DNA of 64,000 nt from an uncultured Verrucomicrobiae bacterium (GCA_937946835.1 CALFAV010000020.1:907-64906); one strand, 5' to 3'. Shown: positions 14,723-47,923, numbered from the stretch's first letter. The notes: a model not told the origin generated them from the letters alone. A program made the numbers and translations.

Positions 14723-14950
14723 GGCGACGCCAAATTTTGTGATGCCCAAAGGCTGGACAGTGTCGTATGCGATCCTGGGGCAGATCAAACAGCTTTTGGA
14801 CTGGGGATTCGACCTGGGGGCAGCGAGGATGTGCCAGATTGGACAAATTGATTCACCCTGCCCCCTGCATCAATGCGCGAAAAGGACCCATGCGAGGTCT
14901 GTCACGGCATGGTCAAGTGGGGCACACGCCAAAACACTGACACTAAACAG

Positions 14951-14967
14951 TCGGCACGAAAACTGCT
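14951..14967 (+). promoter_or_regulatory. sigma54 (-24/-12) promoter
   Basis: TCGGCACG-AAAA-CTGCT, with GG at 14953-54 and GC at 14965-66 exactly 10 nt apart (consensus YTGGCACGNNNNTTGCW). Confidence 0.7.
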
Positions 14968-14977
14968 CCTATTAGAG

Positions 14978-15149
14978 GCAAACCAGCGTCGGGTTTCTGC
15001 GACGGAAATCGGCTGAATCCCGCCGCTCCTGCGATCACCGCAGGCGCAAAAGGTCCTCAGTGGCCTGCTTTCGGCGGCTGAAAACGCTGCCGACCTACCT
15101 TGTAACGTCGCCTGGCGGTCCCGGAATCCGGGACCGCCAGTTCTCTTTT
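14978..15149 (+). ncRNA. candidate sigma54-dependent small RNA 1 (or structured leader of nnr)
   Basis: Lies between the sigma54 promoter and a 13-bp terminator, has several hairpins, and contains no credible ORF. Confidence 0.5.
15112..15149 (+). terminator. intrinsic terminator
   Basis: CTGGCGGTCCCGG-AAT-CCGGGACCGCCAG followed by TTCTCTTTT. Confidence 0.8.
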
Positions 15150-15201
15150 GTGGGTTCGCCAATTCGCTTGCCTGCCAAGTCGCTTTTCCCAAACTCGGTT
15201 T

Positions 15202-16692
15202 GTGCCGGTACCGGTATTGAGTGTATCTCAGGTTCGAGATTGGGAGGCTGCGTCATGGAAATCCGGATGCCTTGAAACCGAAGTCATCACCCAAGTGGGC
15301 CGCCGGCTGGCAAGGCGTTTACTGTCGTTAACCGAACCCGGCGAGCGTCTTTTACTGCTCGTCGGCAAAGGGCACAACGGCGATGACACGCGGGCGGCCG
15401 CCGGGCATTTACCGGATCGGCAGGTTGACGTCCTCGAAATTCCTGAGCCAAAGGCCGGTTTGGACGCGTTCAAGCGAGCCTTGAACCGAGCCCCCGCCTG
15501 GTTGGTGGACGGTCTGTTTGGCATCGGGCTCAACCGTCCGCTAAATGAGGATTGGGTGCGGTTAATCGAGGCAATCAACGATACCAAGCTCCCGGTTGTG
15601 GCTGTGGATGTCCCTTCAGGTCTGGATGCACAAACCGGCCTTGCCTGGGGAGCGGCAGTCCGAGCGCAACTCACGGTGACGGTGGGGGTACCGAAAATCG
15701 GTTTGTTAAACCCGTCGGCTTGGCCTTACACCGGGCGCTTGGTGGTCGAGCCGGACATTGGTCTTTTACCCCCGCCAAAGGAAAGCGAACTTTGGTGGAC
15801 CCTCCCGGATGATTTTAACAATTTTCCGCCGCCGCCCCCTGTGGCTGCCCACAAGGGTGACCGAGGTCACTTGCTGATTTTTGCCGGGTCACGCGGTTTT
15901 CACGGTGCGGCAGTACTGGCTGCCCGCGCCGCCCAGCGGGCCAGACCTGGTTTGATCAGCTTGGGCACCATGCCCGAAGTGTACGTGCCGATTTCGGCGC
16001 AGTTGCAAGCGGTGATGGTGGATGATTGGCGGGCGACGCTATCCAAACTGCCCCGGGCCAGTGCGTGTTTGATTGGACCGGGTTTGGCCGCAGCGGATCT
16101 CCCAGCCACATTTCGTGATTGCATGGTGGATTTGTGGAGTAACGCACACGTACCGGTTATAGCCGATGCCAGCGTTTTGGATTGGCTACCTCCCGATTCG
16201 TTTGAGTCCAAGGCGACCCGGGTGATTACCCCTCATCCGGGAGAGGCAGCCCGCATGTTGAACATTGGTGTGCAGGCGGTTCAAAATGACCGTCCCGGAA
16301 CACTGCGGGCGTTGTCCCAACGCCACAAGCGGTGCTGGGCGGTGCTGAAAGGATTTCAGACCTTGGTGGGTCGAAACCAAGGGATCATCTGGGTAAACTC
16401 TTCTGGTGACGCCAGTTTGGCACAGGGAGGTACGGGAGACATTTTGGCCGGCTTTCTGGCGGGGTTGCTGGCCCAACCCGACCTGGCCGCGGCGCCAGAA
16501 ACCACGATAAGGTACGGGGTTTGGCGCCACGGTGCTGCAGCGGATCGAATTGAAGCGACCGGCTACCGTTGGGCTCCGGAGGAATTGATCGCAGCATTGG
16601 GGCACCTCCATCCGACAGCAAATGGGGAGGAGCAAAAAGCGTCCCAATCGGGAATCAATCCGGAATGGTTCCAACAGTCCACACGCACTTAA
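15202..16692 (+). CDS. nnr: bifunctional NAD(P)H-hydrate epimerase/dehydratase (YjeF)
   Basis: GKGHNGDD, DGLFGIG, AVDVPSG, HKGDRG, TPHPGEAARM, LAQGGTGDILAG. Confidence 0.88.
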   Translation: MPVPVLSVSQVRDWEAASWKSGCLETEVITQVGRRLARRLLSLTEPGERLLLLVGKGHNGDDTRAAAGHLPDRQVDVLEIPEPKAGLDAFKRALNRAPAWLVDGLFGIGLNRPLNEDWVRLIEAINDTKLPVVAVDVPSGLDAQTGLAWGAAVRAQLTVTVGVPKIGLLNPSAWPYTGRLVVEPDIGLLPPPKESELWWTLPDDFNNFPPPPPVAAHKGDRGHLLIFAGSRGFHGAAVLAARAAQRARPGLISLGTMPEVYVPISAQLQAVMVDDWRATLSKLPRASACLIGPGLAAADLPATFRDCMVDLWSNAHVPVIADASVLDWLPPDSFESKATRVITPHPGEAARMLNIGVQAVQNDRPGTLRALSQRHKRCWAVLKGFQTLVGRNQGIIWVNSSGDASLAQGGTGDILAGFLAGLLAQPDLAAAPETTIRYGVWRHGAAADRIEATGYRWAPEELIAALGHLHPTANGEEQKASQSGINPEWFQQSTRT

Positions 16693-16753
16693 CCTATTTG
16701 TGATCAAATTGTTTTGAACTAAAATTTCGAGGTTAAAAATTTTCAGAAAGCCG

Positions 16754-16782
16754 TTGACAACCCCAAAGCTTACCCATAGGCT
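16754..16782 (+). promoter_or_regulatory. sigma70 promoter of the thrT-tuf operon
   Basis: TTGACA-17 nt-TAGGCT with an AT-rich UP-like tract upstream. Confidence 0.7.
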
Positions 16783-16884
16783 TCGCGTCTTGTTATTGTT
16801 CTGACACGCCGTACGCTTCGGCAAATCCAGCCTTGCGTACGGTTGCTTGTCGTTCAATACAAGTCGGTTGCAAACAAAAAGATT

Positions 16885-16960
<76 letters not shown>

Positions 16961-16991
16961 CCGAATAAGTGATTCAAAATCAGTAAAACCA

Positions 16992-18182
16992 ATGGCTAAA
17001 GAGCAATTCCAACGGACCAAGCCGCACGTCAACATCGGCACCATCGGCCACATTGACCATGGCAAATCCACCCTCACCGCTGCGATCGTGGCCACTCAGG
17101 CGAAAAAAGGTTTGGCAACCCCCATTTCTTACTCAGACATCACCAAAGGGGGGACGGTGCGCGACGAAACCAAAACCGTAACCATTGCGATTTCCCACGT
17201 TGAGTACCAAAGCGACAAACGACATTACGCTCACGTGGACTGCCCCGGGCACGCGGACTACATCAAAAACATGATTACCGGGGCGGCCCAAATGGACGGG
17301 GCGATTTTGGTGGTGGATGCTGCCGAGGGGCCCATGCCGCAAACCAAAGAACACGTGCTCCTGGCCCGGCAGGTGGGGGTGCCGGCGATCATTGTTTACC
17401 TCAACAAGGTGGACTTGGTGGATGACCCGGAGTTGTTGGATTTGGTGGAAATGGAGCTTCGAGATCTGCTGACCAAATACGAATTCCCCGGCGACAAGGT
17501 TCCCATAATCCGTGGGAGTGCCAAGGCGGCGTTGGCCGGTGACCCCAAGGGTGAAGAATCCATCCAAAAGCTTCTGGAAGCGGTGGATGAGTTCATCCCG
17601 CTGCCGGTGCGCGAAGTGGACAAGCCCTTCTTGATGAGCATCGAAGACGTGTTCAATATCGAAGGGCGGGGCACGGTCGTCACCGGGCGGGTCGAACGCG
17701 GGGTGTTGGAACGTATGTCCGAAGTGGAAATCGTCGGTCTGCGAGAGACCCGCAAGACGGTGGCCACCGACATCGAAATGTTCCGCAAACTATTGGATAA
17801 GGCCCAGGCTGGAGACAACGTGGGCGTGTTGCTTCGGGGCACCAAAAAAGAAGAAGTGGAGCGTGGTATGGTGCTGGCCAAGCCAGGGACCATCACCCCG
17901 CACACGCATTTCAAGGCGGAGGTTTATGTCCTGTCCAAGGAAGAAGGCGGCCGTCACACGCCGTTCTTCAGCAACTACCGGCCGCAGTTTTACTTCCGCA
18001 CGACCGACGTCACCGGCACGATTACCCTGCCTCCCGGGGTGGAAATGGTCATGCCCGGGGACAATGTCTCCCTGGAGATCAAAGTGATTGCGCCGATTGC
18101 CATGGAACGGGGCCAGCGGTTTGCCATCCGCGAAGGCGGACGGACCATTGGAGCAGGGCGGGTAACCGAGATCATCGAATGA
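16992..18182 (+). CDS. tuf: elongation factor Tu
   Basis: [28 protein letters not shown]. Confidence 0.99.
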
Positions 18183-18243
18183 AACACTTGCGTCCCGATC
18201 CGGGAGGGAATAAAATTTTATGCGATTCGGTTTTCCGGTACAC

Positions 18244-18319
18244 AGGGCGGTAGCTCAATTGGCAGAGTAGCGGTCTCCAAAACCGTCGGTTGGGGGTTCG
18301 AGTCCCTCCCGCCCTGCCA
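18244..18319 (+). tRNA. tRNA-Trp(CCA)
   Basis: AGGGCGG...CCGCCCT-GCCA, anticodon loop CTCCAAA. Confidence 0.97.
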
Positions 18320-18331
18320 GACCGTGTCACG

Positions 18332-18420
18332 GGAGGGGTGGCAGAGTGGTCGAATGCGGCGGTCTTGAAAACCGTTGTGGGTTGCACCCACCGGGGGTTC
18401 GAATCCCTCCCCCTCCGCCA
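18332..18420 (+). tRNA. tRNA-Ser(TGA)
   Basis: GGAGGGG...CCCCTCC-GCCA, anticodon loop CTTGAAA, long variable arm GTGGG-TTGCA-CCCAC. Confidence 0.96.
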
Positions 18421-18434
18421 TGGACTGACAGACA

Positions 18435-18701
18435 GTGCGCGATTACATCTCATTGGGGTTGTGGATCTTGGTCATTGGTGGCGTTTTTGCCTACCTTTGG
18501 CGGAAGGGTCATTTGTTGCGTTTGGGGATCTACCTGGCCGAAACGCGGGAGGAGCTCCGTAAATGCACGTGGCCTTCTGTGGATGAGCTAAAGGGCTCCA
18601 CGGTGGTGGTGATGATCACCATCATCATGTTGGCTGTGTTTACCATGGCTTCAGACTTCATCATTCTCAAAATTGTGCGGGGAATTCTACCGAAGCTTTA
18701 A
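18435..18701 (+). CDS. secE: preprotein translocase subunit SecE
   Basis: EELRKCTWPS motif plus TM helix, canonical position before nusG. Confidence 0.93.
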   Translation: MRDYISLGLWILVIGGVFAYLWRKGHLLRLGIYLAETREELRKCTWPSVDELKGSTVVVMITIIMLAVFTMASDFIILKIVRGILPKL

Positions 18702-18731
18702 TTCCCATAACGCTTGCACCTCGCGCCCCTC

Positions 18732-19280
18732 ATGCGTAGCCAGTGGTTTGTCCTCCACACCCTTTCCGGCCAAGAAATGAAGGTTAAGGAAAGCATTGAA
18801 AAACGCCTCAAAACTGAGGAGATGGGAGAGTACATCCACGAGGTGTTGGTCCCGATCGAAAAAGTGGCCGAGGTGCGCGGGGGAAAAAAAATAGTTACCA
18901 GTCGGAAACTTTATCCGGGTTATGTGTTCATTCACATGGTTTTACTGGATGAAAACCAGCGCTTGATTGAGAGACCTTGGTATTTTATTCGAGAAACCCC
19001 CGGGATCATCGGTTTTGTGGGTGGCGATCGCCCCACGCCAACGAGTCAGGAGGATATTGACCGGATCAAGGCGCAAATTTCGGAATCGGAGGAAACTGAG
19101 CGGCCGAAGGTCAGCTTCGAGGTGGGAGAAACGGTTAAAATCAATGACGGACCTTTCCTCAACTTCAACGGGGTGATCGAGGAGATTGATCCGGACCGGG
19201 GTAAAGTGAAGGTAACTGTAAACATTTTCGGTCGAAGCACGCCGGTGGAACTGGAATACTGGCAACTCGAAAAGGTATAA
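18732..19280 (+). CDS. nusG: transcription termination/antitermination factor NusG
   Basis: WFVLHTLSGQE, YPGYVF, KOW domain GPFLNFNG, IFGRSTPVEL. Confidence 0.97.
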   Translation: MRSQWFVLHTLSGQEMKVKESIEKRLKTEEMGEYIHEVLVPIEKVAEVRGGKKIVTSRKLYPGYVFIHMVLLDENQRLIERPWYFIRETPGIIGFVGGDRPTPTSQEDIDRIKAQISESEETERPKVSFEVGETVKINDGPFLNFNGVIEEIDPDRGKVKVTVNIFGRSTPVELEYWQLEKV

Positions 19281-19333
19281 ACCAAGCCGTTAAACTGCGA
19301 TCAATTCCTTTTCAATTTCAACCTTGAACGTGT

Positions 19334-19759
19334 ATGGCAAAGAAGGTGGTCGGTCAGATCAAGTTGCAAATACCGGCGGGTCAAGCCAATCCGGCCCCCC
19401 CTGTTGGTCCCGCCCTGGGACAGCATGGCGTGAACATCATGGCTTTCTGCAAGGAGTTCAACGCCAAGACCAAAGACCAGGCCGGGATGATCGTGCCCGT
19501 GGTCATTACGGTTTATCAGGATAAGTCCTTTAGTTTCATCACCAAGTCCCCGCCGGCGGCAGTTCTGCTCAAGAAGGCGGCGGGCATTGCCGCCGGTTCG
19601 AAAACCCCGAACAAAGAAAAAGTGGGAAAGGTGACGCGCAAGCAGTTACTGGACATCGTCAAAATAAAACAGGCCGACCTCAATGCCACCAATGAAGAAG
19701 CGGCCGTGCGGGTCATCGCCGGCACGGCTCGGAGTATGGGCATTGAGGTGGTAAATTAA
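19334..19759 (+). CDS. rplK: 50S ribosomal protein L11
   Basis: [27 protein letters not shown]. Confidence 0.99.
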
Positions 19760-19768
19760 CCCAATGCG

Positions 19769-19799
19769 GCGGGAGAGCCGATTGGTTCGTTAAAACCGC
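19769..19799 (+). promoter_or_regulatory. L1-binding autoregulatory mRNA element upstream of rplA
   Basis: GCGG-GAG-AGCC(GATT)GGTT-CGTTAAAA-CCGC, a stem with GGGAG/UAAA internal loop as in L1 leaders located between rplK and rplA. Confidence 0.6.
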
Positions 19800-19807
19800 G
19801 CCATCCC

Positions 19808-20512
19808 ATGCCCAAGAAACACAGCAAACGTTATCGCAAAGCACTCGGCTTGTTTGATGCCGGCAAAGTTTATCCGCTTTCGCAAGCGGTGGATTTGTTG
19901 GTTTCATTTCCCCGAGCGCGTTTCAACGAAACCGTGGAACTGGCCCTGCGTTTGGGTGTGGATCCCAAGCAATCGGATCAGATGGTGCGGGGCACCGTAC
20001 CTCTTCCCCACGGGAGCGGCAAAGTGGTTCGTGTGGCGGTATTTGCCAAGCCGGGGGCCGCAGCCGATGCCGCCCGGGCTGCTGGGGCTGAGTTTGTGGG
20101 CTACGAAGATTTGATTAAAAAATGCCAGGAAGGTTGGGCCGAATTTGATGTAGCGGTTGCCACACCCGAAGCAATGACCGAAGTACGAAAACTCGGCAAG
20201 GTGCTTGGTCCCAAAGGCTTGATGCCAAACCCGAAGACCGGTACCGTGACCGAAGACACTGCGAAAGCGGTGCGCGAAGTCAAAGCCGGCCGTGTCGAAT
20301 TCAAAATTGACAAGGCGGGGAACGTCCATGTGCCCATTGGTAAGTTATCGTTTACCCCCCAGCAACTGATCGAAAATGCCCAAGCTGTGATTGACGCCGT
20401 GTTGCGTGCCCGTCCCGCCACCGTGCGGGGGACCTACATGCGTTCCTGTGTCCTGACCAGCACCATGAACCCGGGTATTCGGTTGGATGTCCGCACCTTG
20501 ACCAACCCCTAA
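19808..20512 (+). CDS. rplA: 50S ribosomal protein L1
   Basis: FNETVE, VRGTVPLPHG, LGPKGLMPNPKTGTVT. Confidence 0.99.
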   Translation: MPKKHSKRYRKALGLFDAGKVYPLSQAVDLLVSFPRARFNETVELALRLGVDPKQSDQMVRGTVPLPHGSGKVVRVAVFAKPGAAADAARAAGAEFVGYEDLIKKCQEGWAEFDVAVATPEAMTEVRKLGKVLGPKGLMPNPKTGTVTEDTAKAVREVKAGRVEFKIDKAGNVHVPIGKLSFTPQQLIENAQAVIDAVLRARPATVRGTYMRSCVLTSTMNPGIRLDVRTLTNP

Positions 20513-20528
20513 TCGCTGAAAAATCGCC

Positions 20529-21041
20529 ATGCGACGCGAAAAGCAATTTCTGACCCAGGAATATCGGAGCCGGCTGAACGCCTCGCCGTTCTTCATCGTG
20601 GTGGAATACAAGGGCCTAAACGTGGCTCAGTTCCGCGAGCTGCGGCACCGGCTCAGCAAGGCGGGAGCGGAAATTCACGTGGTGAAGAACACGGTTTTTC
20701 GGATTGCGGCGCGGGAGGCCGGGCTGCCCGATTTGGATGGCATGTTGGTGGGCCAGTTGGCGGTGGTGACCGGCCAGCGAGATGTCAGCGCAGCGGCCAA
20801 AGTCCTGAAAACTTTTCAGGCGGAGTTCGACAAACCCAAAATCCAATTTGGCTGCCTGGGCAATCAACGACTTGAGCGGGCAACCTTGCTTGCTCTGGCC
20901 GAGCTGCCTTCTCTGGAGGTGCTGCGTGGCCAATTGTTGGGTGTGCTCCAAGCACCCGCCGGCCGACTGGTCCGTCTGTTGCATACTCCGGCCACTCAAC
21001 TGGCTCGGGTGTTGCAAGCAAGAGTCGAAAAGGGTGCCTGA
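20529..21041 (+). CDS. rplJ: 50S ribosomal protein L10
   Basis: YKGLNV, VVKNT, LAELPS, synteny. Confidence 0.96.
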   Translation: MRREKQFLTQEYRSRLNASPFFIVVEYKGLNVAQFRELRHRLSKAGAEIHVVKNTVFRIAAREAGLPDLDGMLVGQLAVVTGQRDVSAAAKVLKTFQAEFDKPKIQFGCLGNQRLERATLLALAELPSLEVLRGQLLGVLQAPAGRLVRLLHTPATQLARVLQARVEKGA

Positions 21042-21179
21042 GCCCGCGCAAGATTTCGCCGCCGTGCAACAACGGTGGTGAATACAAGAACAAACCCAAT
21101 CAGTAAATCGTCGGGCCCACAGGCCGTGGGTTGAAAGCCTTCGTGGCCACGAAGGACGACGAGACGGAAAGGTAGAAAC

Positions 21180-21572
21180 ATGGCAGACATCGCAGCGTTG
21201 GTGGATCAGTTGAGCAAGCTCACGGTCTTGGAGACCGCCGAGCTGGTGAAGAAGCTGGAGGAAACCTGGGGCGTTACCGCCGCCGCGCCCGTGGCGGTAG
21301 CGGCGGTCGGCGCCCCTGCGACCGGAGCCCAGGCGGCGCCGGCCGAAGAAGCCAAGACCACTTTTGATGTCATCTTGGCGTCCGCCCCGGCCGACAAGAA
21401 AATCGCGGTCATCAAAGCCGTTCGGGAAATCAAGGCCGGACTGGGCTTGGCCGAGGCCAAGAAATTGGTGGAAGAAGCGCCCAAGCCGGTGCTCGAGGGC
21501 GCCAGCAAGCAAGACGCTGAAGCGGCCAAGAAGAAACTGGAAGACGCCGGCGCCAAGGTGGAAATTAAATGA
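21180..21572 (+). CDS. rplL: 50S ribosomal protein L7/L12
   Basis: [32 protein letters not shown]. Confidence 0.98.
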
Positions 21573-21586
21573 CGTCGTTGTTGGGG

Positions 21587-21615
21587 CGGGGAACGGCCCA
21601 ACCGGCCGTTCCCCG
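21587..21615 (+). other. 12-bp hairpin between rplL and rpoB (attenuator or processing site; no U tract)
   Basis: CGGGGAACGGCC-CAACC-GGCCGTTCCCCG. Confidence 0.5.
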
Positions 21616-21770
21616 TGCTCAACCCCGTGGTTGATTCCGACCCATCAAGACATCCTCGCGGCCAACTCGATTTGGTTTTCCGCCGGAGCCGACTGTGGTG
21701 TTCACAGCCGGAAAGGAGGATTCTTGTCCGGACCGCAGCGGACCGTCCGTGAACCTGCGGTAAGTTGAAC

Positions 21771-25691
<3,921 letters not shown>

Positions 25692-25727
25692 TTCTGCCGC
25701 ACCCGCAGCTTCCGCCCACGCACAGGT

Positions 25728-29879: not shown

Positions 29880-29902
29880 TCGCGACGGTCGAAACTCTTC
29901 CC

Positions 29903-30369: not shown

Positions 30370-30381
30370 GAAGCTGATTTA

Positions 30382-32713: not shown

Positions 32714-32836
32714 GCGCTCGGCCTACCACGAAGCCGCCGCGCCGGCAACCCGCAACCCCCCGCCGGCCCGCGCGGCGCCCGGCCCCGGGAAAACAGTTGT
32801 CAGCGGCCGGCCGCTTCGTAGCCTGCACGGCAGCGG

Positions 32837-33523: not shown

Positions 33524-33528
33524 CGGCC

Positions 33529-34302: not shown

Positions 34303-34333
34303 CCGACCCGTCCGGGGACCCCCTCGCAAGCAC

Positions 34334-35320: not shown

Positions 35321-35334
35321 CCCCCCGCCCCGCC

Positions 35335-36315: not shown

Positions 36316-36331
36316 ACCGCCGCCCGGCGGT

Positions 36332-37048: not shown

Positions 37049-37058
37049 TCGAGCCGTG

Positions 37059-37277
37059 ATGAACCTGGAAGAAATCCGCAGGCGCCTGCAAGGTGGTTTC
37101 AAGCCGTTCACCTTGCACCTCTCCGACGGGCGCAAGTACGACGTGCCGCATCCCGAATTCATCATGGTGACCCGCCGCAGCGTGGCGGTGGCGGACCCGC
37201 ACGGGTTCATTGACGTCCTGGACCCGCTTCACATCGTGTCGGTCAAGGACCTCGTCCCGCGAAAGGCGCGTCGTTGA
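37059..37277 (+). CDS. small hypothetical protein (72 aa), possible Sm/Hfq-like fold
   Basis: MNLEEIRRRLQGGFKPFTLHLSDGRKYDVPHPEF...LDPLHIVSV, host-like codon usage. Confidence 0.7.
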   Translation: MNLEEIRRRLQGGFKPFTLHLSDGRKYDVPHPEFIMVTRRSVAVADPHGFIDVLDPLHIVSVKDLVPRKARR

Positions 37278-39479: not shown

Positions 39480-39556
39480 GCGGCGGAGTGTAGCGGCGCG
39501 CCGCCGGAGCGCGAGTCCGCTGGCGGACGGAGGGTTCCCCCCGGGGGGCACGGCTT

Positions 39557-40177
39557 TCAGCCGGCGAAGCGACCGGGAGAAAACGCGCCGCGCGGGGGGC
39601 GTGATTGGGAACTGATCCAGACCAGCGTGCCGACGGGGACGTGGTCAAAGAGGGGCATCAGGTCCGCGGCGGCCAGGTGCAGGCAGCCCCGGGAGGCGGG
39701 CCGGCCGAGCGTGGGTTCGTCATCCAGGCCGTGGATGTAGATGTAGCGGCGGAACGTGTCCACCCGTCCGCCGAGGTTGTGGCCGGGTTCCAACCCGCGC
39801 AGCCACAGGATGCGATGCGCAATGGGCGCGGGGCGCGTGCCGGTCCAGGTGAAGCCCACGGGTTGTCGCGCCCGAAAGACCGTGCCCACCGGCCAGCCGG
39901 CGCCGATTTTGACGGTCACCTCGTGCAATCCCAAGGGCGTGCGGTTCGATCCCAGGATTTGGCCCACCCCGCGGCGGGCGCTGGACATGCGGAAGCAAGC
40001 CTGCAGCCGATAGGCGTCACACCGGGCCGCTTCGGCCACCCACCACTCGAGGCATTGGCTGCCCACCCAGGCCAGGAGCAGGTGCCGGGTCAACCGCACC
40101 CCGTGCCGTCGGCAGCGCAGCCGCAGTTCCCGCGGCAGGGCCGGCCACTCCAGGTGCGGGCGGACGGACAGGCTCAC
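39557..40177 (-). CDS. L,D-transpeptidase (YkuD) family protein
   Basis: TPLG and IYIHG...PASRGC catalytic motif, start overlaps the argA stop. Confidence 0.8.
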   Translation of the reverse strand: MSLSVRPHLEWPALPRELRLRCRRHGVRLTRHLLLAWVGSQCLEWWVAEAARCDAYRLQACFRMSSARRGVGQILGSNRTPLGLHEVTVKIGAGWPVGTVFRARQPVGFTWTGTRPAPIAHRILWLRGLEPGHNLGGRVDTFRRYIYIHGLDDEPTLGRPASRGCLHLAAADLMPLFDHVPVGTLVWISSQSRPPRGAFSPGRFAG

Positions 40178-41454
40178 TGAAGTTTCTTGACCAGGATTTT
40201 CGAGCGGCGCCCGGTCTGTTCGTACTTTTCGCGCCGGGCCGGGGGGAGGTCCTCGGGGGTGCCCGCGACGAACCCGCCCTTGGACTGGAAGTAGGTGAAG
40301 GCCTGGGTGGAGAGGGCCAGCAACTCCTTCAAGCCCAGCTCGCGGGCCTTGTTTTCGGCAAACTGGAGCAGTTTCCGGCCGATGCCCTGGTTTTCGTGCG
40401 AGGGTTTGACAAACAGGCAGGCCACCTCGCCCTTGCCCGCCTCGGGGTAGGCGTGCAGGGCCACACAGCCCACGGGGTTCTTGTCTATTTCGTACAGGAA
40501 GTAGTCGCCCAGATGCTTCTCGATGCTGGCGCGGCTGCGGCGGACCAGTTCCTCGGTTTCCACCGAGGGCTGGATGAGTTTGAGCAGGTTGGGAATGTCC
40601 TTTTTGAGGGCGCGGCGGATTTGCCGGTATTCGTTGGCGTACACCAGCGTGCCCACGCCCTCGTTGGAGAACAGCTCGGCCAGGAGGGCTTCGTCCAGTC
40701 GGCCGTTGATGATGTGGACGCGCGGGATGCCGGCCTTGCAGGCGGCGGCGGCGTGGAGGGCCTTGGACAGGCACTCGGGCGCGAAGTCCTGGCGGTGCGT
40801 GGCCAGGGCTTCTTCCAGGTCACTGGCCAGGATTTGCCGCAGCAGACGGCCCTGATAAATCAACCCGTCGGCCGGGGTCACGAAGAGGATTTTGACCGCC
40901 TGCAGGGCCGTGGCCAGGGCCACGGCCACGGCGTCGGAGTTGACCCGGTAGGTGCGGCCCTCGCCGTCGAAGCCCAGGGGAGGCACCACCGGGATGATGT
41001 CGTCCTGGAGCAACGCCTGGAGCAGTCCCACGTCCACCCGCTCGACCTTGCCGGTGAAGAGATGGTCCACGCCCTGCAGGATGCCCAGCGGATGGGCCAC
41101 GAGGGCGTTGGGGCAGGCGGCCCGCAGGTCCTGGGTGGCCAGGCCCTCGAGGATTTCGTGGGTGAGCCGGTTGGCGGCCTCGAGGGCCAGTTGCAACGTG
41201 GCGGCGTCGGTGACACCGCTGCCGTCCAGGTTGGAGGGACTGATCCCCTGGCGTTCGGCCAGGCGCTGAATCTGGGCGGCCGCGCCGTGGACCAGCACCA
41301 CGCGGATGCTCAGCGAGCGCAACACCGCCACGTCCATGAGGATGTTGGCGAAGTTCTCGTCGGTGACGATCGCGCCGTCCACGCTGATGACGAACGTCCG
41401 TTCGCGGAAGCGCGGGATGTATTGCAGGATGCCCCGCAGATCGGTGGGTTTCAC
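40174..41454 (-). CDS. argA: amino-acid N-acetyltransferase
   Basis: AAK-like domain (VLVHGA, ELFSNEGVGT) plus GNAT domain (EVACLFV, QGIG, RRSK). Confidence 0.92.
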   Translation of the reverse strand: MKPTDLRGILQYIPRFRERTFVISVDGAIVTDENFANILMDVAVLRSLSIRVVLVHGAAAQIQRLAERQGISPSNLDGSGVTDAATLQLALEAANRLTHEILEGLATQDLRAACPNALVAHPLGILQGVDHLFTGKVERVDVGLLQALLQDDIIPVVPPLGFDGEGRTYRVNSDAVAVALATALQAVKILFVTPADGLIYQGRLLRQILASDLEEALATHRQDFAPECLSKALHAAAACKAGIPRVHIINGRLDEALLAELFSNEGVGTLVYANEYRQIRRALKKDIPNLLKLIQPSVETEELVRRSRASIEKHLGDYFLYEIDKNPVGCVALHAYPEAGKGEVACLFVKPSHENQGIGRKLLQFAENKARELGLKELLALSTQAFTYFQSKGGFVAGTPEDLPPARREKYEQTGRRSKILVKKLQ

Positions 41455-41562
41455 TTCAGGAACAAACCGTCTGGCTACCCGGCATTGAGCCGAAATCCCG
41501 GCCCGGGCTGCAACGCTTTTCTGGACCGGATCGAGGGTGCCACCAGTCGGCCGGTGGCCCGG

Positions 41563-41856
41563 TCAGGCCGTCCCGCGCGACGCCAACCGGTCACATCGGC
41601 GGGCCAGATCAAAATCCCGGTCGGTCAGGCCGCCCGCGTCGTGGGTGGTCAGGGTGAGGGTGACCCGGTTCCACCGGATTTCGATGTCCGGGTGGTGTCC
41701 TGCTTTTTCGGCGGCCCGGGCCACGGCGTTGACGAACTTCATGGCGGTGGCGAAGTCCGGGAATTCAAACGTGCGGCGGAGGGCCTGGCGAACCCGGGTC
41801 CAGTGGGGCACCGTGGCCAGGCGGGTTTTGATTTCTGCGGGGGTCAGTGGGTTCAT
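41563..41856 (-). CDS. pterin-4-alpha-carbinolamine dehydratase
   Basis: AEKAGHHPDI, TTHDAGGLT. Confidence 0.9.
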   Translation of the reverse strand: MNPLTPAEIKTRLATVPHWTRVRQALRRTFEFPDFATAMKFVNAVARAAEKAGHHPDIEIRWNRVTLTLTTHDAGGLTDRDFDLARRCDRLASRGTA

Positions 41857-41908
41857 GGTATCGGGCCGCCGGGCGGGGCGGTCATTCCCGCAACCAGAGT
41901 GTCGTGGT

Positions 41909-42964
41909 TTAGTGGGAGGTCAACTCCTCGAGCTTGCGCGCGACCGCGCCGGTGTCGAGCAGGTTCTCGGCCGCGACCCAGCCGTCGTACCAGGAGGCGG
42001 CGTGGCCGGCCACGAGGAGCGCGCCGGCGGCGTTCAGCAGCAGGGCGTCGCGCTTGGGACCGCGCTCGGTGCCGGAAAAGACGGCGCGCAGGCAGGCGGC
42101 ATTGGCCGCGGCATCACCGCCGCGGAGGTCTTCCACGCGCGCGGCCTGGAGGGGGAAATCTTTGGGGTTGAGCCGGCTGACCTGGACCGCGCCTCCAGGG
42201 AGGTAGCCGGCCAGGGTCGTTTCGCCCAGGCTGGAGATTTCGTCCAGGTACACCGGCGCGCCGTCCTCGCGCCGCCCGGCCTCGCCGCACACCACCAGAC
42301 CACGCCGGACACCGAGCTGTTGCAACACGCGGGCGAACGGCTCGCACCAGTGCGGCTCGGGCACGCCCAGGAGCTGGTAGTCCGGCCGGGCGGGGTTGAG
42401 CAGCGGGCCCAGGAGGTTGAAGAGCGTGCGCCGGCCGCGTTGGGCGCACAGTTGCCGGGCCGGAGCCACCGCCCGGAAGGCCGGGTGGTACCGCGGCGCC
42501 AGCAGAAAGACAAAGCCGTGCTGCTGGAGGGCTTGGGCGGCTTTGACGGGAGCCAGTTCGGTGGGTACGCCCAGGGCGGCCAGCACATCCGCGCTGCCGG
42601 CCCGGGAGGTGACGGCCCGGTTGCCGTGCTTGGCCACCGGCACCCCGGCGGCGGCGGCGATCAGGGCGGCGCCGGTGGACAGATTGATGGTGCCCAGGCG
42701 ATCACCACCGGTGCCCACCACGTCCAGCACCCCGCGTTCGCGGACCGCGGCCGGTACCTCCAACGGGATGGCCCGGTCGCGCAGCCCGGCGGCAAACCCG
42801 AGAATCTCCTCGGGGGTCTCGCCCTTGGTGGCCAGGGCGGTGAGGAATTCGGCCTTGGGTTCCGCCGGCATCGCTTCGTCCGTGAGGGCTTCCAGAGCGG
42901 CGGCTATTTCGGCCGGTGCCAGGGCGGTACCGTGGCGAAGTTGTTCCGTCAACCGTTCCAGCAT
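41909..42964 (-). CDS. trpD: anthranilate phosphoribosyltransferase
   Basis: DVVGTGGD, KHGNRAVTSRAGSADVL, FNLLGPLLNP, DE. Confidence 0.95.
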   Translation of the reverse strand: MLERLTEQLRHGTALAPAEIAAALEALTDEAMPAEPKAEFLTALATKGETPEEILGFAAGLRDRAIPLEVPAAVRERGVLDVVGTGGDRLGTINLSTGAALIAAAAGVPVAKHGNRAVTSRAGSADVLAALGVPTELAPVKAAQALQQHGFVFLLAPRYHPAFRAVAPARQLCAQRGRRTLFNLLGPLLNPARPDYQLLGVPEPHWCEPFARVLQQLGVRRGLVVCGEAGRREDGAPVYLDEISSLGETTLAGYLPGGAVQVSRLNPKDFPLQAARVEDLRGGDAAANAACLRAVFSGTERGPKRDALLLNAAGALLVAGHAASWYDGWVAAENLLDTGAVARKLEELTSH

Positions 42965-43157
42965 GACTCGGGGAAGTTGACCGGGGTTGCGTCGGGGGAC
43001 AAGTCCAACCGCAGTGGGACGGTCCGGGAAAAGGCCGGAACGCGCGCGCCGTACCCGGGTTGTGGCCCCGGGCCGTCCCGGGGAACCGGGCCCCCCCTTT
43101 GCGGACTTTCGGCTTGCGAAGGGGCCGTGAGATTTGCTAACGCTTTTGCATTCTTTT

Positions 43158-43913
43158 ATGGCTGCAATCGGCCGTTTTCAAAAAGGTGACGACATCTTCT
43201 ACGCCAAGGTCGTGGACGGGGAGTTGTACCGTCTGATCGGCGACGTGTTCGGATCACCCTCGTTTGAGAAAAAACCGACCTCGCTGAAGGGGGTCAAGAC
43301 CCTGGTGCCGGTGACCCCGTCGAAGCTGATTGCGGTGGGGCTCAATTACGCCGATCACGCGCGCGAATCCGGCAAGCCCCTGCCCAAGGAACCGCTGTTC
43401 TGGCTGAAGGCGCCCACCTCGTTGCTGCCCGACGGCGGCAAGATCGAGATCCCGTTCCCGGATCACCGGGTGGATTTCGAGGCCGAGCTGGCGATCATCA
43501 TCGGCCGTCGGGTGCGCAACGTCACCCCCGCCGCGGCCGCCCGGTACATTTTCGGCTACACGGCGGCCCAGGACATCAGCGACCGCACCATCCAGCAGGC
43601 CGAGAGCCAGTGGGCACGGTGCAAATCCTTTGACACCTTCACGCCGCTGGGCCCGTACGTGGAGACCAAGATTGACCCCCATGAGCTGTCCATCCAGCTC
43701 TTCCAAAACGGGCAGCTCCGCCAGAACTCGAACACCAGCCAGATGATCTTCAACTGCTTTCAGTTGGTCAGCTTCATTTCCACCAACATGACCCTCCTGC
43801 CCGGGGACGTGATCCTGACCGGCACGCCCAGCGGGGTGGGGCCCATCGCGTCCGGCGACCGGCTGGAGGTCCGCATTCAGGGCCTGGCGCCGTTGGTCAA
43901 CACCGTCAAGTAA
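43158..43913 (+). CDS. fumarylacetoacetate hydrolase family protein
   Basis: VGLNYADH, DFEAEL, KSFDTF, GDVILTGTPSGVG. Confidence 0.92.
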   Translation: MAAIGRFQKGDDIFYAKVVDGELYRLIGDVFGSPSFEKKPTSLKGVKTLVPVTPSKLIAVGLNYADHARESGKPLPKEPLFWLKAPTSLLPDGGKIEIPFPDHRVDFEAELAIIIGRRVRNVTPAAAARYIFGYTAAQDISDRTIQQAESQWARCKSFDTFTPLGPYVETKIDPHELSIQLFQNGQLRQNSNTSQMIFNCFQLVSFISTNMTLLPGDVILTGTPSGVGPIASGDRLEVRIQGLAPLVNTVK

Positions 43914-43982
43914 CGCCCGCCGCGGCCCGCGAAATTTCCCCCGGCCGGTGGGGGCGTTTACCCGCCACCCGCCTCCTGAAAA

Positions 43983-45740
43983 ATGCGCTGGACTCAGACC
44001 TTCATCCCCACCCTCAAGGAAACGCCCGCGGAGGCGGAAATCGCCTCGCACCAACTGCTGCTGCGCGCCGGTCTGGTGCGCAAAGTAAGCGGCGGGCTTT
44101 ACACCTTCCTGCCCCTGGGCGTGCGCGTGCTCCGCAAGATCGAACGCATCGTGCGCGAGGAGATGGACCGGGCCGGCGCGCTGGAGGTGTCCATGCCCTG
44201 CCTCCAGCCGCCGGAGTTGTGGCAGCAAAGCGGCCGCTACACCACCGCCGCCGAGGTGCTCTACCACGTGTTTGACCGGGCCAAAAAGGAATGGGTGCTC
44301 AGCCCCACCGCCGAGGAGGTCATCACCCACCTGGCCGCCGGCGAACTGGGGTCCTACCGGCAGCTCCCGAAAAACTTCTACCAGATCGGCATCAAGTTCC
44401 GGGACGAAATCCGCCCCCGCTTCGGCCTGATGCGCGCCAGGGAGTTCCTCATGAAGGACGCCTACAGCTTCGACGTGAGCGACGCGGCGGCCCAGGTCAG
44501 TTACGAGAAGATGTACCGCGCCTACGCCCGCATCTTCGCCCGTTGCGGGCTGCGCACCTTCCCGGTCGAGGCGGACACCGGGGTCATCGGCGGCAGCCTT
44601 TCCCACGAATTCATGGTCCCGGCCGAGACGGGCGAGAACGAGGTGGTGTACTGCGAAACCGGCACCTACGCGGCCAATATCGAAAAGGCCACCAGCCGCG
44701 GCCCCCGGCTGCCCACGCCGCAACAAAGCACCGGGCCGGCGCCGGAGAAGTTTTCCACCCCGGGCGTGGTTACCATCGAGGCCCTGGCCGCCGCGCCGTA
44801 CTCGGTGCCCGCCCATCACCAGATCAAAACCCTGGTGTACCTGCTGGACTCGCAGCCGACGCTGGTGCTCTTGCGCGGCGATGACCAATTGAACGAGGCC
44901 AAGCTGCTGGCCCGCACCGGCGCCGCCCGCGCCCGCCCCGCCACCCCGGAGGAATGCAAGGCCACGCTCGGCGCGCATCCCGGCTCCCTGGGGGCCGTCC
45001 GAGCCACGCTGCGCCGGCCCGTGCGCGTGCTGGCCGATCTGGCGCTGCGGGGTGCCGCCGGCATGGCCACCGGCGCCAACGAGGACGGCTTTCACCTGCG
45101 CCACGTGGACCTGGCGCGCGACGTGGTGGTGGACCAATGGGCCGACCTGCGCACGGTACAGGCCGGCGAACTCGATGTGGCCACGGGGCAGCCGCTCAAA
45201 ATCCGCCGGGCCATCGAGGTGGGCCACGTCTTCAAGCTCGGCACCAAATACAGCGAAAAGCTCAACGCCTGCTTCCTGGACGAGACCGGTCAGCGGCAAC
45301 CGGCCGTCATGGGCTGTTACGGCATCGGCATCACCCGCACCCTGCAGGCCATCATCGAGCAGCAACACGATCGGGACGGCATCCTCTGGCCCTTGACCAC
45401 CGCCCCGTATGCGGTTTGCCTCACGCCATTGAACGTGGCGCCGGACAGCGCCCCGATGCGGCTGGCCGAGCAATTGTATGCCGAATTGACCGCCCGCGGC
45501 GTGGAGGTGCTCCTGGACGACCGGGACGAACGGCCGGGCGTGAAGTTCAAGGACGCCGATCTGGTGGGATTCCCCCTCCGGGTGAATCTGGGCGAAAAGG
45601 CCCTGGCCCGGGGCGAAATCGAATTGAAACCGCGGGGGGGCACCCTGACCCCGGTGAAGATCGAGGCGGCCCGGGAGGCCATTCTCGAGTGGCTGAGGGC
45701 GGAATCCGCCCGCCTGGAGGCCACCGTACCCCCGGCCTGA
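43983..45740 (+). CDS. proS: proline--tRNA ligase (with INS editing domain)
   Basis: PTAEE, KFRDEIRPRFGLMRAREFLMKDAYSF, EVGHVF, MGCYGIG. Confidence 0.98.
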   Translation: MRWTQTFIPTLKETPAEAEIASHQLLLRAGLVRKVSGGLYTFLPLGVRVLRKIERIVREEMDRAGALEVSMPCLQPPELWQQSGRYTTAAEVLYHVFDRAKKEWVLSPTAEEVITHLAAGELGSYRQLPKNFYQIGIKFRDEIRPRFGLMRAREFLMKDAYSFDVSDAAAQVSYEKMYRAYARIFARCGLRTFPVEADTGVIGGSLSHEFMVPAETGENEVVYCETGTYAANIEKATSRGPRLPTPQQSTGPAPEKFSTPGVVTIEALAAAPYSVPAHHQIKTLVYLLDSQPTLVLLRGDDQLNEAKLLARTGAARARPATPEECKATLGAHPGSLGAVRATLRRPVRVLADLALRGAAGMATGANEDGFHLRHVDLARDVVVDQWADLRTVQAGELDVATGQPLKIRRAIEVGHVFKLGTKYSEKLNACFLDETGQRQPAVMGCYGIGITRTLQAIIEQQHDRDGILWPLTTAPYAVCLTPLNVAPDSAPMRLAEQLYAELTARGVEVLLDDRDERPGVKFKDADLVGFPLRVNLGEKALARGEIELKPRGGTLTPVKIEAAREAILEWLRAESARLEATVPPA

Positions 45741-45827
45741 CCCCGCGCACGGCCGGGATTGTCGAGGCTTTGGGGCTGGCGCAACATATCCCGCCGGCCA
45801 CCGACTCCACGCCCGGTCCGGCCCGCG

Positions 45828-47288
45828 ATGGACAAGCTGCTGCTCATAGATGACGAGCGGGACATGCACTACTCGTTCCGGCGCATTTTTGACTCGCCGG
45901 ACCTGGAGCTGATCCCCGCCGCCAGTGGGGAGGAGGGCTTGCGCCTCATTGCCGAGCGCCGGCCCGACCTGGTGCTGCTGGACATTCGCCTGGGGGGCAT
46001 CAACGGTTTGGAAACCCTCCGCCGCATCCGACACCTGGACGCCCGCCTGCCGGTCATCCTCATGACGGCGTACGGCACCACCCAGACGGCCATCGAGGCC
46101 ATGAAACTGGGGGCCTACGATTACCTGCTCAAGCCCTTCGACGTGCCGCGGCTCAAGCACATCGTGGGCGAGGCGCTCCGGGCCGCGCGCGCCATGCGCC
46201 AGATAGTGTCCTACCAGCCGCTGCTCGAGCAGGAGGATTACGAACTGGGCATCATCGGACGCAGCCCGGCCATGCAGGAGGTTTTCAAGTTGATCGGCCA
46301 ACTGGCGGCTTCCGACGCCACGGCGCTGATCACGGGGGAAAGCGGCACGGGCAAGGAACTGGTGGCCCGCGCCATTTATCACCACAGCCGCCGCAGCCGC
46401 CAACCGTTCCTGGCCGTCAACTGCGCGGCCATCCCGGAGCAACTGCTCGAGAGCGAACTTTTCGGTCATGAAAAGGGCGCCTTCACCGGCGCCACTCACC
46501 AGCGCATCGGCCGCTTCGAGCAATGCCACGGCGGCACCATTTTCTTGGACGAGATCGGCGACATGAGCCCGGCCACGCAGACCAAGATTCTGCGGGTCCT
46601 GCAGGAGGGCACCTTCGAGCGTGTGGGCGGCAACGCCACAGTGCGGGTGGACGTGCGGGTGATCGCCGCCACCAACCAGGACCTCGAGCGTGCCGTGGCC
46701 GAGAAACGCTTCCGCGAGGACCTGTTCTACCGCCTTAACGTCGTGCGCGTGCGCCTGCCGCCGCTGCGGGAGCGGCCGGGCGACATCCCCCTGCTGGCGG
46801 ACTACTTCCTGCGTCGCGGCGCACAAAAGTTCGGTCGCCCCCCCGGGCTGCTCTCCGCCGAGGCGTTGGCCCTGCTCGAACGCCACTCCTGGCCCGGCAA
46901 CGTGCGCGAACTTGAGAACGCCCTTCAGCACGCCCTGGTTGTCGCCAAGGGCGAAACCATCTTGCCGGCCGACCTGCCGGCCAGCGTGCGGGCGCCTCTG
47001 CCAGCGGCTGCCCCGGAGCAGACCGAGGTTTCGCCGCCCGCGATTTCCCGCGCTTCCGCCGGAGACGACTCGGAAGTGACCGACCTGGCGACCCGCCTTT
47101 TCGCCTGGGCCAGGAGCCACCCGCAACGCAAGGTGATCGAAGCCGTCGAGCGCGCTTTGGTTGTCCAGGCATTGAAAGAAACCCGCGGCAACCAGGTCCG
47201 AGCCGCGCAATTGCTGGGCATGACCCGCGCCACGCTCCGCAAGCGGATCGAACGTTTCGGCATCCGCCGGGAATTCGACGTGCGCTGA
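45828..47288 (+). CDS. NtrC-family sigma54-dependent response regulator (REC-AAA+-Fis HTH)
   Basis: Receiver domain DD/D/K, GESGTGKE, GAFTGA, FLDEIG, WPGNVREL, C-terminal HTH. Confidence 0.95.
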   Translation: MDKLLLIDDERDMHYSFRRIFDSPDLELIPAASGEEGLRLIAERRPDLVLLDIRLGGINGLETLRRIRHLDARLPVILMTAYGTTQTAIEAMKLGAYDYLLKPFDVPRLKHIVGEALRAARAMRQIVSYQPLLEQEDYELGIIGRSPAMQEVFKLIGQLAASDATALITGESGTGKELVARAIYHHSRRSRQPFLAVNCAAIPEQLLESELFGHEKGAFTGATHQRIGRFEQCHGGTIFLDEIGDMSPATQTKILRVLQEGTFERVGGNATVRVDVRVIAATNQDLERAVAEKRFREDLFYRLNVVRVRLPPLRERPGDIPLLADYFLRRGAQKFGRPPGLLSAEALALLERHSWPGNVRELENALQHALVVAKGETILPADLPASVRAPLPAAAPEQTEVSPPAISRASAGDDSEVTDLATRLFAWARSHPQRKVIEAVERALVVQALKETRGNQVRAAQLLGMTRATLRKRIERFGIRREFDVR

Positions 47289-47732
47289 ACGCCTGCGGCG
47301 GAGTGCCCGGCGCGGCGCCACCCGGCCGGCTTCGTCGGGTCTTCCCGCGGCCGCCCCTTGGAGCATCCGACGCGCTCTGACCGCCTCCCCGGCGGCCGTG
47401 TCACGCTGCCTTTAGCCGGTATTTTCCGAGAGGGTTTCCAACCCCGGTTCACGGGGTTATTTGACAACAGGCGGAACAGCCCGTCCAAATCTTGGCCGGG
47501 TCTGCGATTAGCAAATCCCAAATCCATCGGCGGCAACCCCGATTCGTTCGCGTCCCAGGTTGCTGTCGAAAACGGCGTGGGCGGGCGGCGATTGCGAATG
47601 AAATTCACGGCACAACCCTTTGGTCCACAAAAGGATGTTCCAACGAACGGTACGGCTCCAAATGGCGGGAGAGCTCGACTGTCCCGTCGCGTCAGCCCCA
47701 CCTGCGTCGCGGCTTTGAAATCCCACCTCGGG

Positions 47733-47749
47733 CAGGCATACCGGTTGCT
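47733..47749 (+). promoter_or_regulatory. sigma54 (-24/-12) promoter
   Basis: CAGGCATA-CCGG-TTGCT, with GG at 47735-36 and GC at 47747-48 exactly 10 nt apart. Confidence 0.65.
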
Positions 47750-47759
47750 TGAGGAGCGG

Positions 47760-47923
47760 GCGTTACTTTGCGCCCAAGGGCTGCTGCCGGCACGGGGGCC
47801 GGTGGCTGGGCGCGTGGAGTAACCAAGTCGGCTGAGTTTGCCGGCGCCATGCCGGCGGGGAACAGGGTTGCCGTGCTTGAAGGGTCGGTCTGCCGCCCGC
47901 TCCAACGGGCGGCAGACTTTTTT
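47760..47923 (+). ncRNA. candidate sigma54-dependent small RNA 2
   Basis: Two long hairpins followed by a terminator, beginning at the predicted +1 of the sigma54 promoter. Confidence 0.55.
47888..47923 (+). terminator. intrinsic terminator
   Basis: GTCTGCCGCCCG-CTCCAA-CGGGCGGCAGAC-TTTTTT. Confidence 0.88.

Follow-up and report, generated by a model that had tools for sequence, protein, structure and literature searches.

The stretch of DNA described here, a window of 64,000 nucleotides (nt) from an uncultured Verrucomicrobiae bacterium (GCA_937946835.1, CALFAV010000020.1:907-64906; contig C20:907-64906 in the labelling used below), harbors two intergenic units, each of which combines a predicted sigma-54 promoter, a structured RNA devoid of open reading frames (ORFs) and a strong intrinsic terminator. 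A first-pass annotation, made from the sequence alone, had drawn attention to both units, and both are indeed present in the window as it described them and are conserved in relatives of the host. The coordinates of their parts, and of the other features considered, are collected in Table 1; the genome that holds the window is labelled G000, its relatives G001, G002 and so on, and individual loci by the letter L and a number.

Table 1. Features of the two units, of a third small RNA and of their surroundings (window coordinates unless another contig or locus is named; RNA ends and functional assignments are predicted)
Feature	Position	Strand	Remarks
Unit 1 candidate activator site, dyad TGTGCCA-GAT-TGGACAA	14830-14846	+	122 nt before promoter; putative function
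Unit 1 sigma-54 promoter CGGCACGAAAACTGCT	14952-14967	+	GG 14953-14954, GC 14965-14966; canonical spacing
Unit 1 RNA, ~170 nt	about 14976-15149	+	5' end placed from promoter, 3' end from terminator
Unit 1 hairpin loop GCGAC	14999-15003	+	proposed pseudoknot 5' strand; nearly invariant
Unit 1 pyrimidine-rich unpaired joint AAAAGGUCCUCAGUGGCCUGCUU	15048-15071	+	candidate pairing region; putative function
Unit 1 second pyrimidine-rich joint CCUACCUUGUAAC	15094-15106	+	ACC(U/C)ACCU nearly invariant in genus
Unit 1 GUCGC	15107-15111	+	proposed pseudoknot 3' strand; directly before terminator
Unit 1 intrinsic terminator	15112-15149	+	hairpin 15112-15140, 13 pairs (11 G-C), then TTCTCTTTTG
NtrC-like response-regulator enhancer-binding protein gene	45759/45828-47288	+	REC, Sigma54_activat (AAA+), HTH_8
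Unit 2 candidate activator site, dyad GTCCAAATCTTGGCC	47483-47497	+	~250 nt before promoter; putative function
Unit 2 second conserved upstream block GTTCCAACGAACGGTACGG	47637-47655	+	aligns with TTTCAACAAC(T/C)GGTTCGG in G008 and G002
Unit 2 sigma-54 promoter AGGCATACCGGTTGCT	47734-47749	+	GGCAY-N5/6-CTGCTT kept in 5/5 orthologues
Unit 2 RNA, ~168 nt	about 47757-47924	+	three or four A(A/C)AGGGU motifs; ORF-free
Unit 2 terminator	47887-47918 plus T run	+	13-pair hairpin
Third sigma-54 small RNA	G000 C62 about 10550-10700; locus L191 about 1532-1680	+	promoter TGGCACTGCATTTGCT
tRNA-Thr, tRNA-Trp, tRNA-Ser	16885-16960, 18244-18319, 18332-18420	+	flank tuf; ordinary
tuf gene	16992-18182		flanked by tRNAs
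tmRNA, tag ANEELALAA	30018-30369	-	ordinary

Both RNAs behave as non-coding sequences: neither displays codon periodicity, insertions and deletions in both occur in lengths that are not multiples of three, and the helices of both covary. When folding was compared with that of dinucleotide shuffles, unit 1 gave a z-score of -4.29 (with none of 200 shuffles as good) and unit 2 a z-score of -3.06 (2 of 200). No family of Rfam 15 was found at either unit, when the window was searched at gathering thresholds or the units themselves at E-values up to 10.

The RNA body of unit 1, used as a BLAST query, was matched in all nine other genomes of the genus at 75-90% identity. All nine matches end at the terminator and eight of them begin near the predicted 5' end (window 14976 to 14985), that of the closest genome including the promoter as well. 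A covariance model (R1) built from the ten genus sequences (that of G000 and the other nine) matches 14975-15152 in the window at 191 bits, and recovers unit 1 in 28 of 33 genomes of the family, representing 10 of its 11 genera, as a single full-length copy per genome (one match is cut by a contig end, and one genome carries an extra 24-nt fragment). Elsewhere in the order, R1 has a match in 28 of a sample of 120 genomes, and no fewer than 15 of those matches are full-length with E-values of 2.4e-8 or better; in the rest of the phylum it produces only matches of 60-105 nt and 26-28 bits in 6 of 150 genomes, which are taken as terminator-like noise. This distribution marks unit 1 as an RNA family of long standing, present in single copy and spread over the order as a whole.

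A -24/-12 element in register with unit 1 accompanies the RNA at all 38 loci inspected, namely 27 of 27 in the family (those with enough upstream sequence, the contig-end locus L047 having been dropped) and 11 of 11 at the level of the order (the 11 best loci only). Within the family the element takes the form GG-N10-GC, with TGGCAY or TGGTAY followed by TGCT, and ends 7-22 nt before the start of the model; at the order-level loci an equivalent element lies 24-45 nt ahead of the model match. The spacer, together with the first transcribed bases, varies freely while the promoter itself is kept, which is the pattern expected of a functional promoter.

The predicted fold of unit 1 is likewise maintained by compensatory change. 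Across the 27 family sequences, both partners have changed in 37 of the 48 predicted pairs, and pairing is kept in 90.3% of cells as opposed to 27-50% when the partners are slid, values that none of 500 column shuffles reaches; the addition of 10 full-length order-level sequences (giving 37 homologues, with the contig-cut L162 left out and two reverse-strand terminator fragments included) yields similar figures for pairing and covariation, with covariation in the terminator helix as well. The fold comprises five helices, and a hairpin loop, GCGAC, is complementary to the GUCGC that directly precedes the terminator. Both elements are nearly invariant, the central pair between them is G-C in 23 sequences and A-U in 5, and in one further genome GCGAU occurs, by eye, with AUCGC; a loop-to-tail pseudoknot is therefore proposed, a likely pairing that replaces the outer helix drawn by RNAalifold for the genus alone. 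In the fourth helix, the AUCA-type loop is invariant as well. Of the two pyrimidine-rich joints, the first, situated between the fourth and sixth helices, carries a CCUNCY- or UCCNCY-type motif in 34 of 37 homologues (a motif set defined post hoc and without a shuffle control), and the second keeps such a motif order-wide in only 12 of 37.

Unit 2 has a much narrower distribution. Its own covariance model (R2), which matches the window copy at 160 bits, and BLAST together place it in G000 and four other genomes of the genus only, with a weak 120-nt match in one other genus. All five copies retain the promoter, the terminator, three or four A(A/C)AGGGU motifs and a core in which UGCGCCCA is paired to UGGGCGCG, enclosing a covarying hairpin. 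Both partners have changed in 13 of the 52 pairs, and pairing is kept in 89.5% of cells as opposed to 32-46% with slid partners. The genes that surround it are an activator gene and enolase in G000, and a Mur ligase, an ABC ATPase and an AdoHcy hydrolase in relatives. A candidate dyad, GTCCAAAT(C/G)TTGGCC (GTCCAATCCTTGGTC in G001), is found at all five orthologous loci between positions -268 and -290; four of the genomes contain a single such site and the fifth contains two. As this dyad is kept though the flanking genes differ, it travels with the RNA gene. By eye, the second conserved upstream block of the unit has a similar counterpart on the reverse strand at the G001 locus. With its restriction to part of a single genus, unit 2 qualifies as a young RNA, and its AGGGU repeats suggest a decoy or an RNA that pairs at several sites. 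A role for unit 2 as a sponge for unit 1 was considered and rejected, the duplex energies being no better than those of shuffles in all five genomes (fraction as good 0.095-0.815). Weak matches of R2 on the opposite strand (E-values of about 1e-5 to 3e-4, at G002:C18:37163-37295 (+), G008:C130:7265-7394 (+) and G001:C2:142574-142708 (-)) overlap the terminator of the unit 2 orthologues and extend about 90 nt past it, and may represent the palindromic terminator alone or a convergent element.

The two RNAs are, by every sequence comparison made, unrelated to each other. The best local alignment between the units is an upstream 11-mer with a score of 17, which compares with shuffle scores of 18.9 +/- 2.2 when whole units are aligned and of 16.6 +/- 2.1 when RNA bodies are; R1 and R2 each fail to find the other unit; and their distributions differ, unit 1 being order-wide whereas unit 2 is limited to five genomes of one genus.

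The same design recurs elsewhere in the genome. With a promoter matrix built from 32 promoters of these small RNAs (sRNAs), 98 sites in G000 score 11 or above, with unit 1 ranked first (17.4) and unit 2 joint third (16.8), and most of the other top sites precede protein genes. The genome-wide search for sigma-54 promoters followed by terminators, one of the follow-ups suggested by the first-pass annotation, yielded one further conserved sRNA, on contig C62, whose promoter is present as TGGCAYTG-N4-YTGCTWAGTA(A/T)(A/T) in all ten genomes of the genus (the fourth-last letter being G in G000), and in which promoter, variable hairpin, an invariant G/U-rich stretch (GUUUGGUUGUUGGUUGGUUGCAGUGGUUGGGGUCA) and terminator hairpin follow in that order. 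This RNA has no Rfam match, has nothing obvious in common with units 1 or 2, and lacks conservation in its upstream regions; on the strength of its conserved parts it is considered a genuine third sigma-54 sRNA. Two other candidates combining promoter and terminator were discarded, that on C77 as not conserved and that on C11 as having no conserved promoter. Among the protein genes, a good sigma-54 promoter precedes a PII-type gene (C6, about 16371, minus strand), and an identical 16-mer, TGGCACCGCAACTGCT, precedes two genes (C35:13324 (+) and C31:58152 (-)) whose products both have, by eye, a hydrophobic, prepilin-like N-terminus.

The machinery that such promoters demand is encoded in the same assembly (3.46 Mb, 68% G+C, 88 contigs, 89% complete), which contains a single rpoN gene (Sigma54_DBD, on C4) and seven genes with a strong Sigma54_activat domain, that is, seven true bacterial enhancer-binding proteins (bEBPs). 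Neither Hfq (PF17209) nor CsrA (PF02599) was found in this 89% complete assembly, and its 6S RNA (RF00013; C62:15098-15280, 57.7 bits) lies at neither unit. The host is a soil-type, Limisphaerales/Pedosphaera-like Verrucomicrobium, the closest named relatives of the activator protein encoded beside unit 2 belonging, at 65-68% identity, to metagenome-assembled genomes designated Pedosphaera sp., Limisphaerales, Verrucomicrobiales and Verrucomicrobia. This agrees with Verrucomicrobia, the group assumed in the first-pass annotation.

The window thus probably contains two independent and unrelated genes for sigma-54-dependent small non-coding RNAs, which most likely answer to different activators. 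The conservation of promoter, RNA body and terminator together in relatives places this architecture well outside what chance would produce. Each unit would form a self-contained module in which one or more upstream activator sites and a -24/-12 promoter precede a structured RNA of about 170 nt that ends in an intrinsic terminator. Sigma-54 holoenzyme forms a closed complex at its promoters, the opening of which needs ATP hydrolysis by an activated bEBP; because the holoenzyme cannot open the promoter alone, each RNA would be made only when its cognate bEBP is activated by the corresponding signal, and would otherwise be off. The sequence elements themselves, their conservation and covariation, and the absence of homology between the two RNAs are observed; transcription, activators, targets and mode of action of the units are what we infer from these features. 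In unit 1, the pseudoknot would leave the pyrimidine-rich joints unpaired, and there is perhaps an even chance that these joints act in trans by pairing with purine-rich sites in messenger RNAs (mRNAs), without the help of Hfq.

Several points weigh against these conclusions. The RNA ends and the sigma-54 dependence of both units are predicted. Two of the alignments (A3 and A4) were produced by fitting sequences to the model, so that their pair counts are inflated; the covariation of unit 2 is based on five close sequences only; and the ranking of both units in the promoter scan is circular, since the matrix was trained on the same promoters. The comparisons assigned an activator to neither unit, and no upstream motif of unit 1 was found to be conserved past the five closest genomes. 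Target prediction for unit 1 in the single genome returned GC-driven noise only. Shine-Dalgarno (SD)-like 4-mers located 4-18 nt before 2197 crudely called ORF starts of G000 are not enriched (9.1%, against 10.3% and 7.9% in controls), counts that weaken a model in which the RNA masks ribosome sites through anti-Shine-Dalgarno pairing and make it doubtful; as a consequence, any targets that unit 1 has need not be ribosome-binding sites. Several sigma-54-driven mRNAs of G000 carry C/A-rich leaders (for example, CCAACCC..AATTCGCC-ATG), and translation initiation in this genome may be largely SD-independent. Finally, the compact, pseudoknotted fold of unit 1 would equally suit a protein-binding RNA.

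The main rival reading, possible if doubtful, is that unit 1 does not act by base pairing but is a structured RNA that binds a protein or a small ligand, in the manner of 6S RNA, GlmY or CsrB, and that sigma-54 merely times its synthesis. Its five helices and covarying pseudoknot, packed into some 170 nt, the invariant nucleotides of the GCGAC loop and of the loop of the fourth helix, and the failure to find either Hfq or SD enrichment in G000 are all consistent with such a role. Nevertheless, the neighbourhood offers no partner protein, its only recurrent member being a divergent M29 gene described below; CsrA was not found in G000, and the 6S RNA is encoded elsewhere; and the most persistent unpaired feature of the molecule is a simple pyrimidine-rich stretch, of the type that typifies pairing seeds. 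A bolder proposal, which must be rated unlikely, is that unit 1 represents a new class of compact pseudoknotted riboregulator that the Limisphaerales have maintained under strict sigma-54 control from the origin of the order onwards and that operates without Hfq or CsrA, for example by binding a protein or a metabolite, and that, with unit 2 and the C62 RNA, it would give several of the seven bEBPs an output layer made of RNA.

The first-pass annotation had favored a different arrangement, in which a single activator, the NtrC-like protein of the 45759-47288 gene, controls the two RNAs as siblings, recognizing AGGATGTKCCA upstream of each promoter, with AARTCGGCTGART serving as a shared seed or protein-binding motif. 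The upstream motifs do exist (AGGATGTGCCA, 14826-14836; AGGATGTTCCA, 47632-47642), and their distances from the promoters were correctly given (127 nt before the GG at 14953 and 103 nt before that at 47735); distances of 100-130 nt are typical of activator sites, and the motif of unit 1 overlaps a conserved dyad. The internal motifs exist as well (AAATCGGCTGAAT, 15006-15018; AAGTCGGCTGAGT, 47825-47837). A 10-of-11 match between the two 200-nt upstream regions nevertheless arises in 26.5% of 200 dinucleotide shuffles, and an 11-of-13 match between the RNA bodies in 17%, so that matches of this quality recur in 17-27% of shuffles and the motifs stand at chance level against background. Nor are the shared letters those that orthologues conserve. 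In unit 1 the AGGA is not conserved, and the GCCA part alone is kept, as the left half of a dyad (GYGCCA); in unit 2 the conserved block TTC(C)AAC.AAC.GGT.CGG only overlaps the end of the motif (GTTCCAACGAACGGTACGG, as against TTTCAACAACYGGTTCGG in two relatives), and the separate dyad of that unit, GTCCA-N5-TGGYC, has a spacing of N5 rather than the N3 of unit 1. The internal motif is partly a helix strand in unit 1, where it becomes GACCAUUG or GACAAUUG in two genus genomes, and falls in the least conserved part of the RNA in unit 2, where orthologues do not keep it. With both motifs at chance level and the conserved letters differing between the units, the regulon reading is not supported. 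A further, possibly shared element, GYCCAAA-N3-TGGMC, has five sites in G000, of which two precede the promoters of the units by 208 and 251 nt. It was rejected: it was derived from those two sites, its unit 1 copy reads TAGAC in four of five orthologues, and about 25 nt separate that copy from the beginning of the transporter gene.

The unit 1 dyad itself is retained as GYGCCA-N3-TGGACRAA in the five closest genomes and is not recognisable in more distant genera; when 27 or 32 upstream regions were searched for a family-wide activator site, neither exact 4+4 patterns nor palindromes rose above shuffles. A scan of G000 with the dyad gave 172 sites at two mismatches or fewer; the only ones near a sigma-54 promoter are that of unit 1 and one that precedes the PII gene promoter by 138 nt, compared with roughly 4 expected by chance. 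A separate block, GCCCAAAGGCTGGACAG, at window 14745-14761, is also kept in the five closest genomes, four of which have it as ..CCTAGACA.. instead. It precedes the start of the divergent transporter gene by some 25 nt and may be part of the transporter leader rather than of unit 1.

The proximity of the activator gene to unit 2, the other foundation of the regulon reading, holds in G000 and in that genome only. The protein matches TIGR01818 (NtrC) over its full length at 514.1 bits, and is the best NtrC match among the seven bEBPs (the other six score 309-426 bits); its score lies below the cut-off of 558.6, and it is therefore termed 'NtrC-like' at most. Orthologues that are 74-86% identical occur in all five genus genomes searched, three of them with a prolyl-tRNA synthetase gene upstream as in G000, and neither unit 2 nor a convincing sigma-54 promoter was found downstream of any of these five; four more distant orthologues have no such RNA nearby. 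The adjacency is absent from all four other genomes with unit 2, those that hold both genes having them on different contigs, and the activator is present in genomes without unit 2, such as G009.

Within the family, an orthologue of the activator is present in 25 of 33 genomes. Five genomes with unit 1 yielded no such orthologue (their best full-length match is at most 49% identical, and they are 75-94% complete), and two genomes have the orthologue where the search for unit 1 found none; with 7 of 33 genomes thus discordant, the phylogenetic profile was rejected as a link between the activator and unit 1. Genus g11, which keeps rpoN and lacks both unit 1 and the orthologue, does accord with the regulon reading, as a single event in one lineage. 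No bEBP gene lies within 1.5 kb of unit 1 at any locus, and one locus has a hybrid histidine kinase gene. From the sequence comparison, the adjacency of activator and unit 2 looks like a recent rearrangement, and in G000 it is evidence neither for nor against control of either RNA by the activator. The conservation across relatives that had been proposed as a check is, in short, found for the units and not for the shared letters or the adjacency, and the proposal of one activator and two sibling RNAs, which are not homologous, is decidedly unlikely.

It is very improbable that the units are instead cis-acting leaders or attenuators of the genes that follow them, although in G000 both downstream genes (yjeF/nnr after unit 1 and enolase after unit 2) are co-oriented and begin 100-220 nt past the terminators, and a co-oriented ABC-transporter ATPase gene follows unit 2 in G008 and G006. 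The downstream genes differ among genomes and, for unit 1, are often convergent (among them genes for a 3-keto-disaccharide hydrolase, a topoisomerase and a hybrid histidine kinase, all of them on the opposite strand), a strong terminator is kept in all homologues, and no alternative anti-terminator pairing was noticed. The position of unit 1 in G000, between a divergent AEC-type transporter gene and yjeF/nnr, is shared by the four closest genomes only. Upstream of it, a divergent M29 aminopeptidase gene is found at 15 of 27 family loci, in six genera (L024, L026-L029, L032, L034, L035, L037, L038, L040 and L042-L045, with the M29 start approximately 190-210 nt upstream), and at none of the 11 order-level loci; this is probably the ancestral arrangement, and in G000 the M29 gene lies at C70:41426-42532. 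A GGTCGAG box recurs, by eye, just before the M29 start, and a sigma-54 promoter for the divergent gene was sought and not found (best score 8.3). As the neighbours differ among genomes, unit 1 is regarded as an independent unit. Barely credible, finally, is the notion that promoter- and terminator-like elements have come together by chance and lie unused in silent spacers, given that discrete blocks are conserved from promoter to terminator while their flanks diverge, that the promoter is kept at every unit 1 locus inspected and at all five of unit 2, and that both units exhibit compensatory base changes.

Comparison with established systems places these two independent units among RNAs of a known regulatory kind. 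The Qrr1-5 RNAs of Vibrio, under the control of LuxO, are likewise short regulatory RNAs that end in a terminator and are expressed from sigma-54 promoters under an NtrC-family response regulator; one of them, qrr1, is encoded next to the activator gene, an arrangement that unit 2 shares in G000. The Qrr RNAs, however, are paralogues with a long conserved stretch that require Hfq, whereas the RNAs described here are unrelated and no Hfq was found; the Qrr RNAs are about 100 nt in length and those described here about 170, and the activator adjacency observed here is not conserved. Neither unit matches RF00378, which we take to be the Qrr family in Rfam, at E-values up to 10. In Pseudomonas, CrcZ and CrcY, which depend on CbrB, resemble unit 2 of G000 in that a sigma-54- and bEBP-dependent sRNA lies just downstream of an activator gene; the repeated A-rich motifs through which CrcZ sequesters Hfq/Crc are missing, by eye, from both units, which moreover have no Rfam match in a genome where no Hfq was found.

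The layout of unit 1 is closest to that of GlmY of Enterobacteria, an sRNA controlled by GlrR/QseF that is structured and sigma-54-dependent, measures about 150-180 nt, is encoded away from its activator gene and may bind protein. GlmY differs in having a homologous partner, GlmZ, whereas unit 1 is single-copy, has no glmS-related context and matches no Rfam family. The RsaE/RoxS and CcsR RNAs display unpaired pyrimidine-rich motifs between helices, as do the joints of unit 1, but they are not sigma-54-dependent and share no homology with it, and G000 shows no SD enrichment. A sponge of the CsrB/RsmZ type requires CsrA and repeated GGA loops, whereas CsrA was not found here and the repeats of unit 2 read AGGG(U). 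Membership in the Qrr, CrcZ or GlmY families fails on sequence, on copy structure and on chaperone, and the window contains two new RNA families, accompanied by a third on another contig.

The sigma-54-dependent sRNAs that have been well studied (Qrr, GlmY, CrcZ and others) are all from Proteobacteria, and to our knowledge almost no riboregulation has been described in Verrucomicrobiota; the first-pass annotation had known of no comparable system in Verrucomicrobia, and a full-text search of the literature for sigma-54-dependent sRNAs in that group indeed found nothing. Against this background, the family of unit 1 stands out as one that keeps its sigma-54 promoter at every locus inspected across an order of Verrucomicrobiota, and that occurs in a genome where neither Hfq nor CsrA was found. 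The history of unit 2 illustrates that the adjacency of an activator gene and an sRNA in a single genome can mislead. Unit 1 represents a new RNA family that is ready for Rfam, and provides a clean marker for sigma-54 promoters in uncultured bacteria of soil and freshwater; its promoter, together with the candidate dyads, offers a tractable entry to the signals sensed by orphan enhancer-binding proteins in these organisms.

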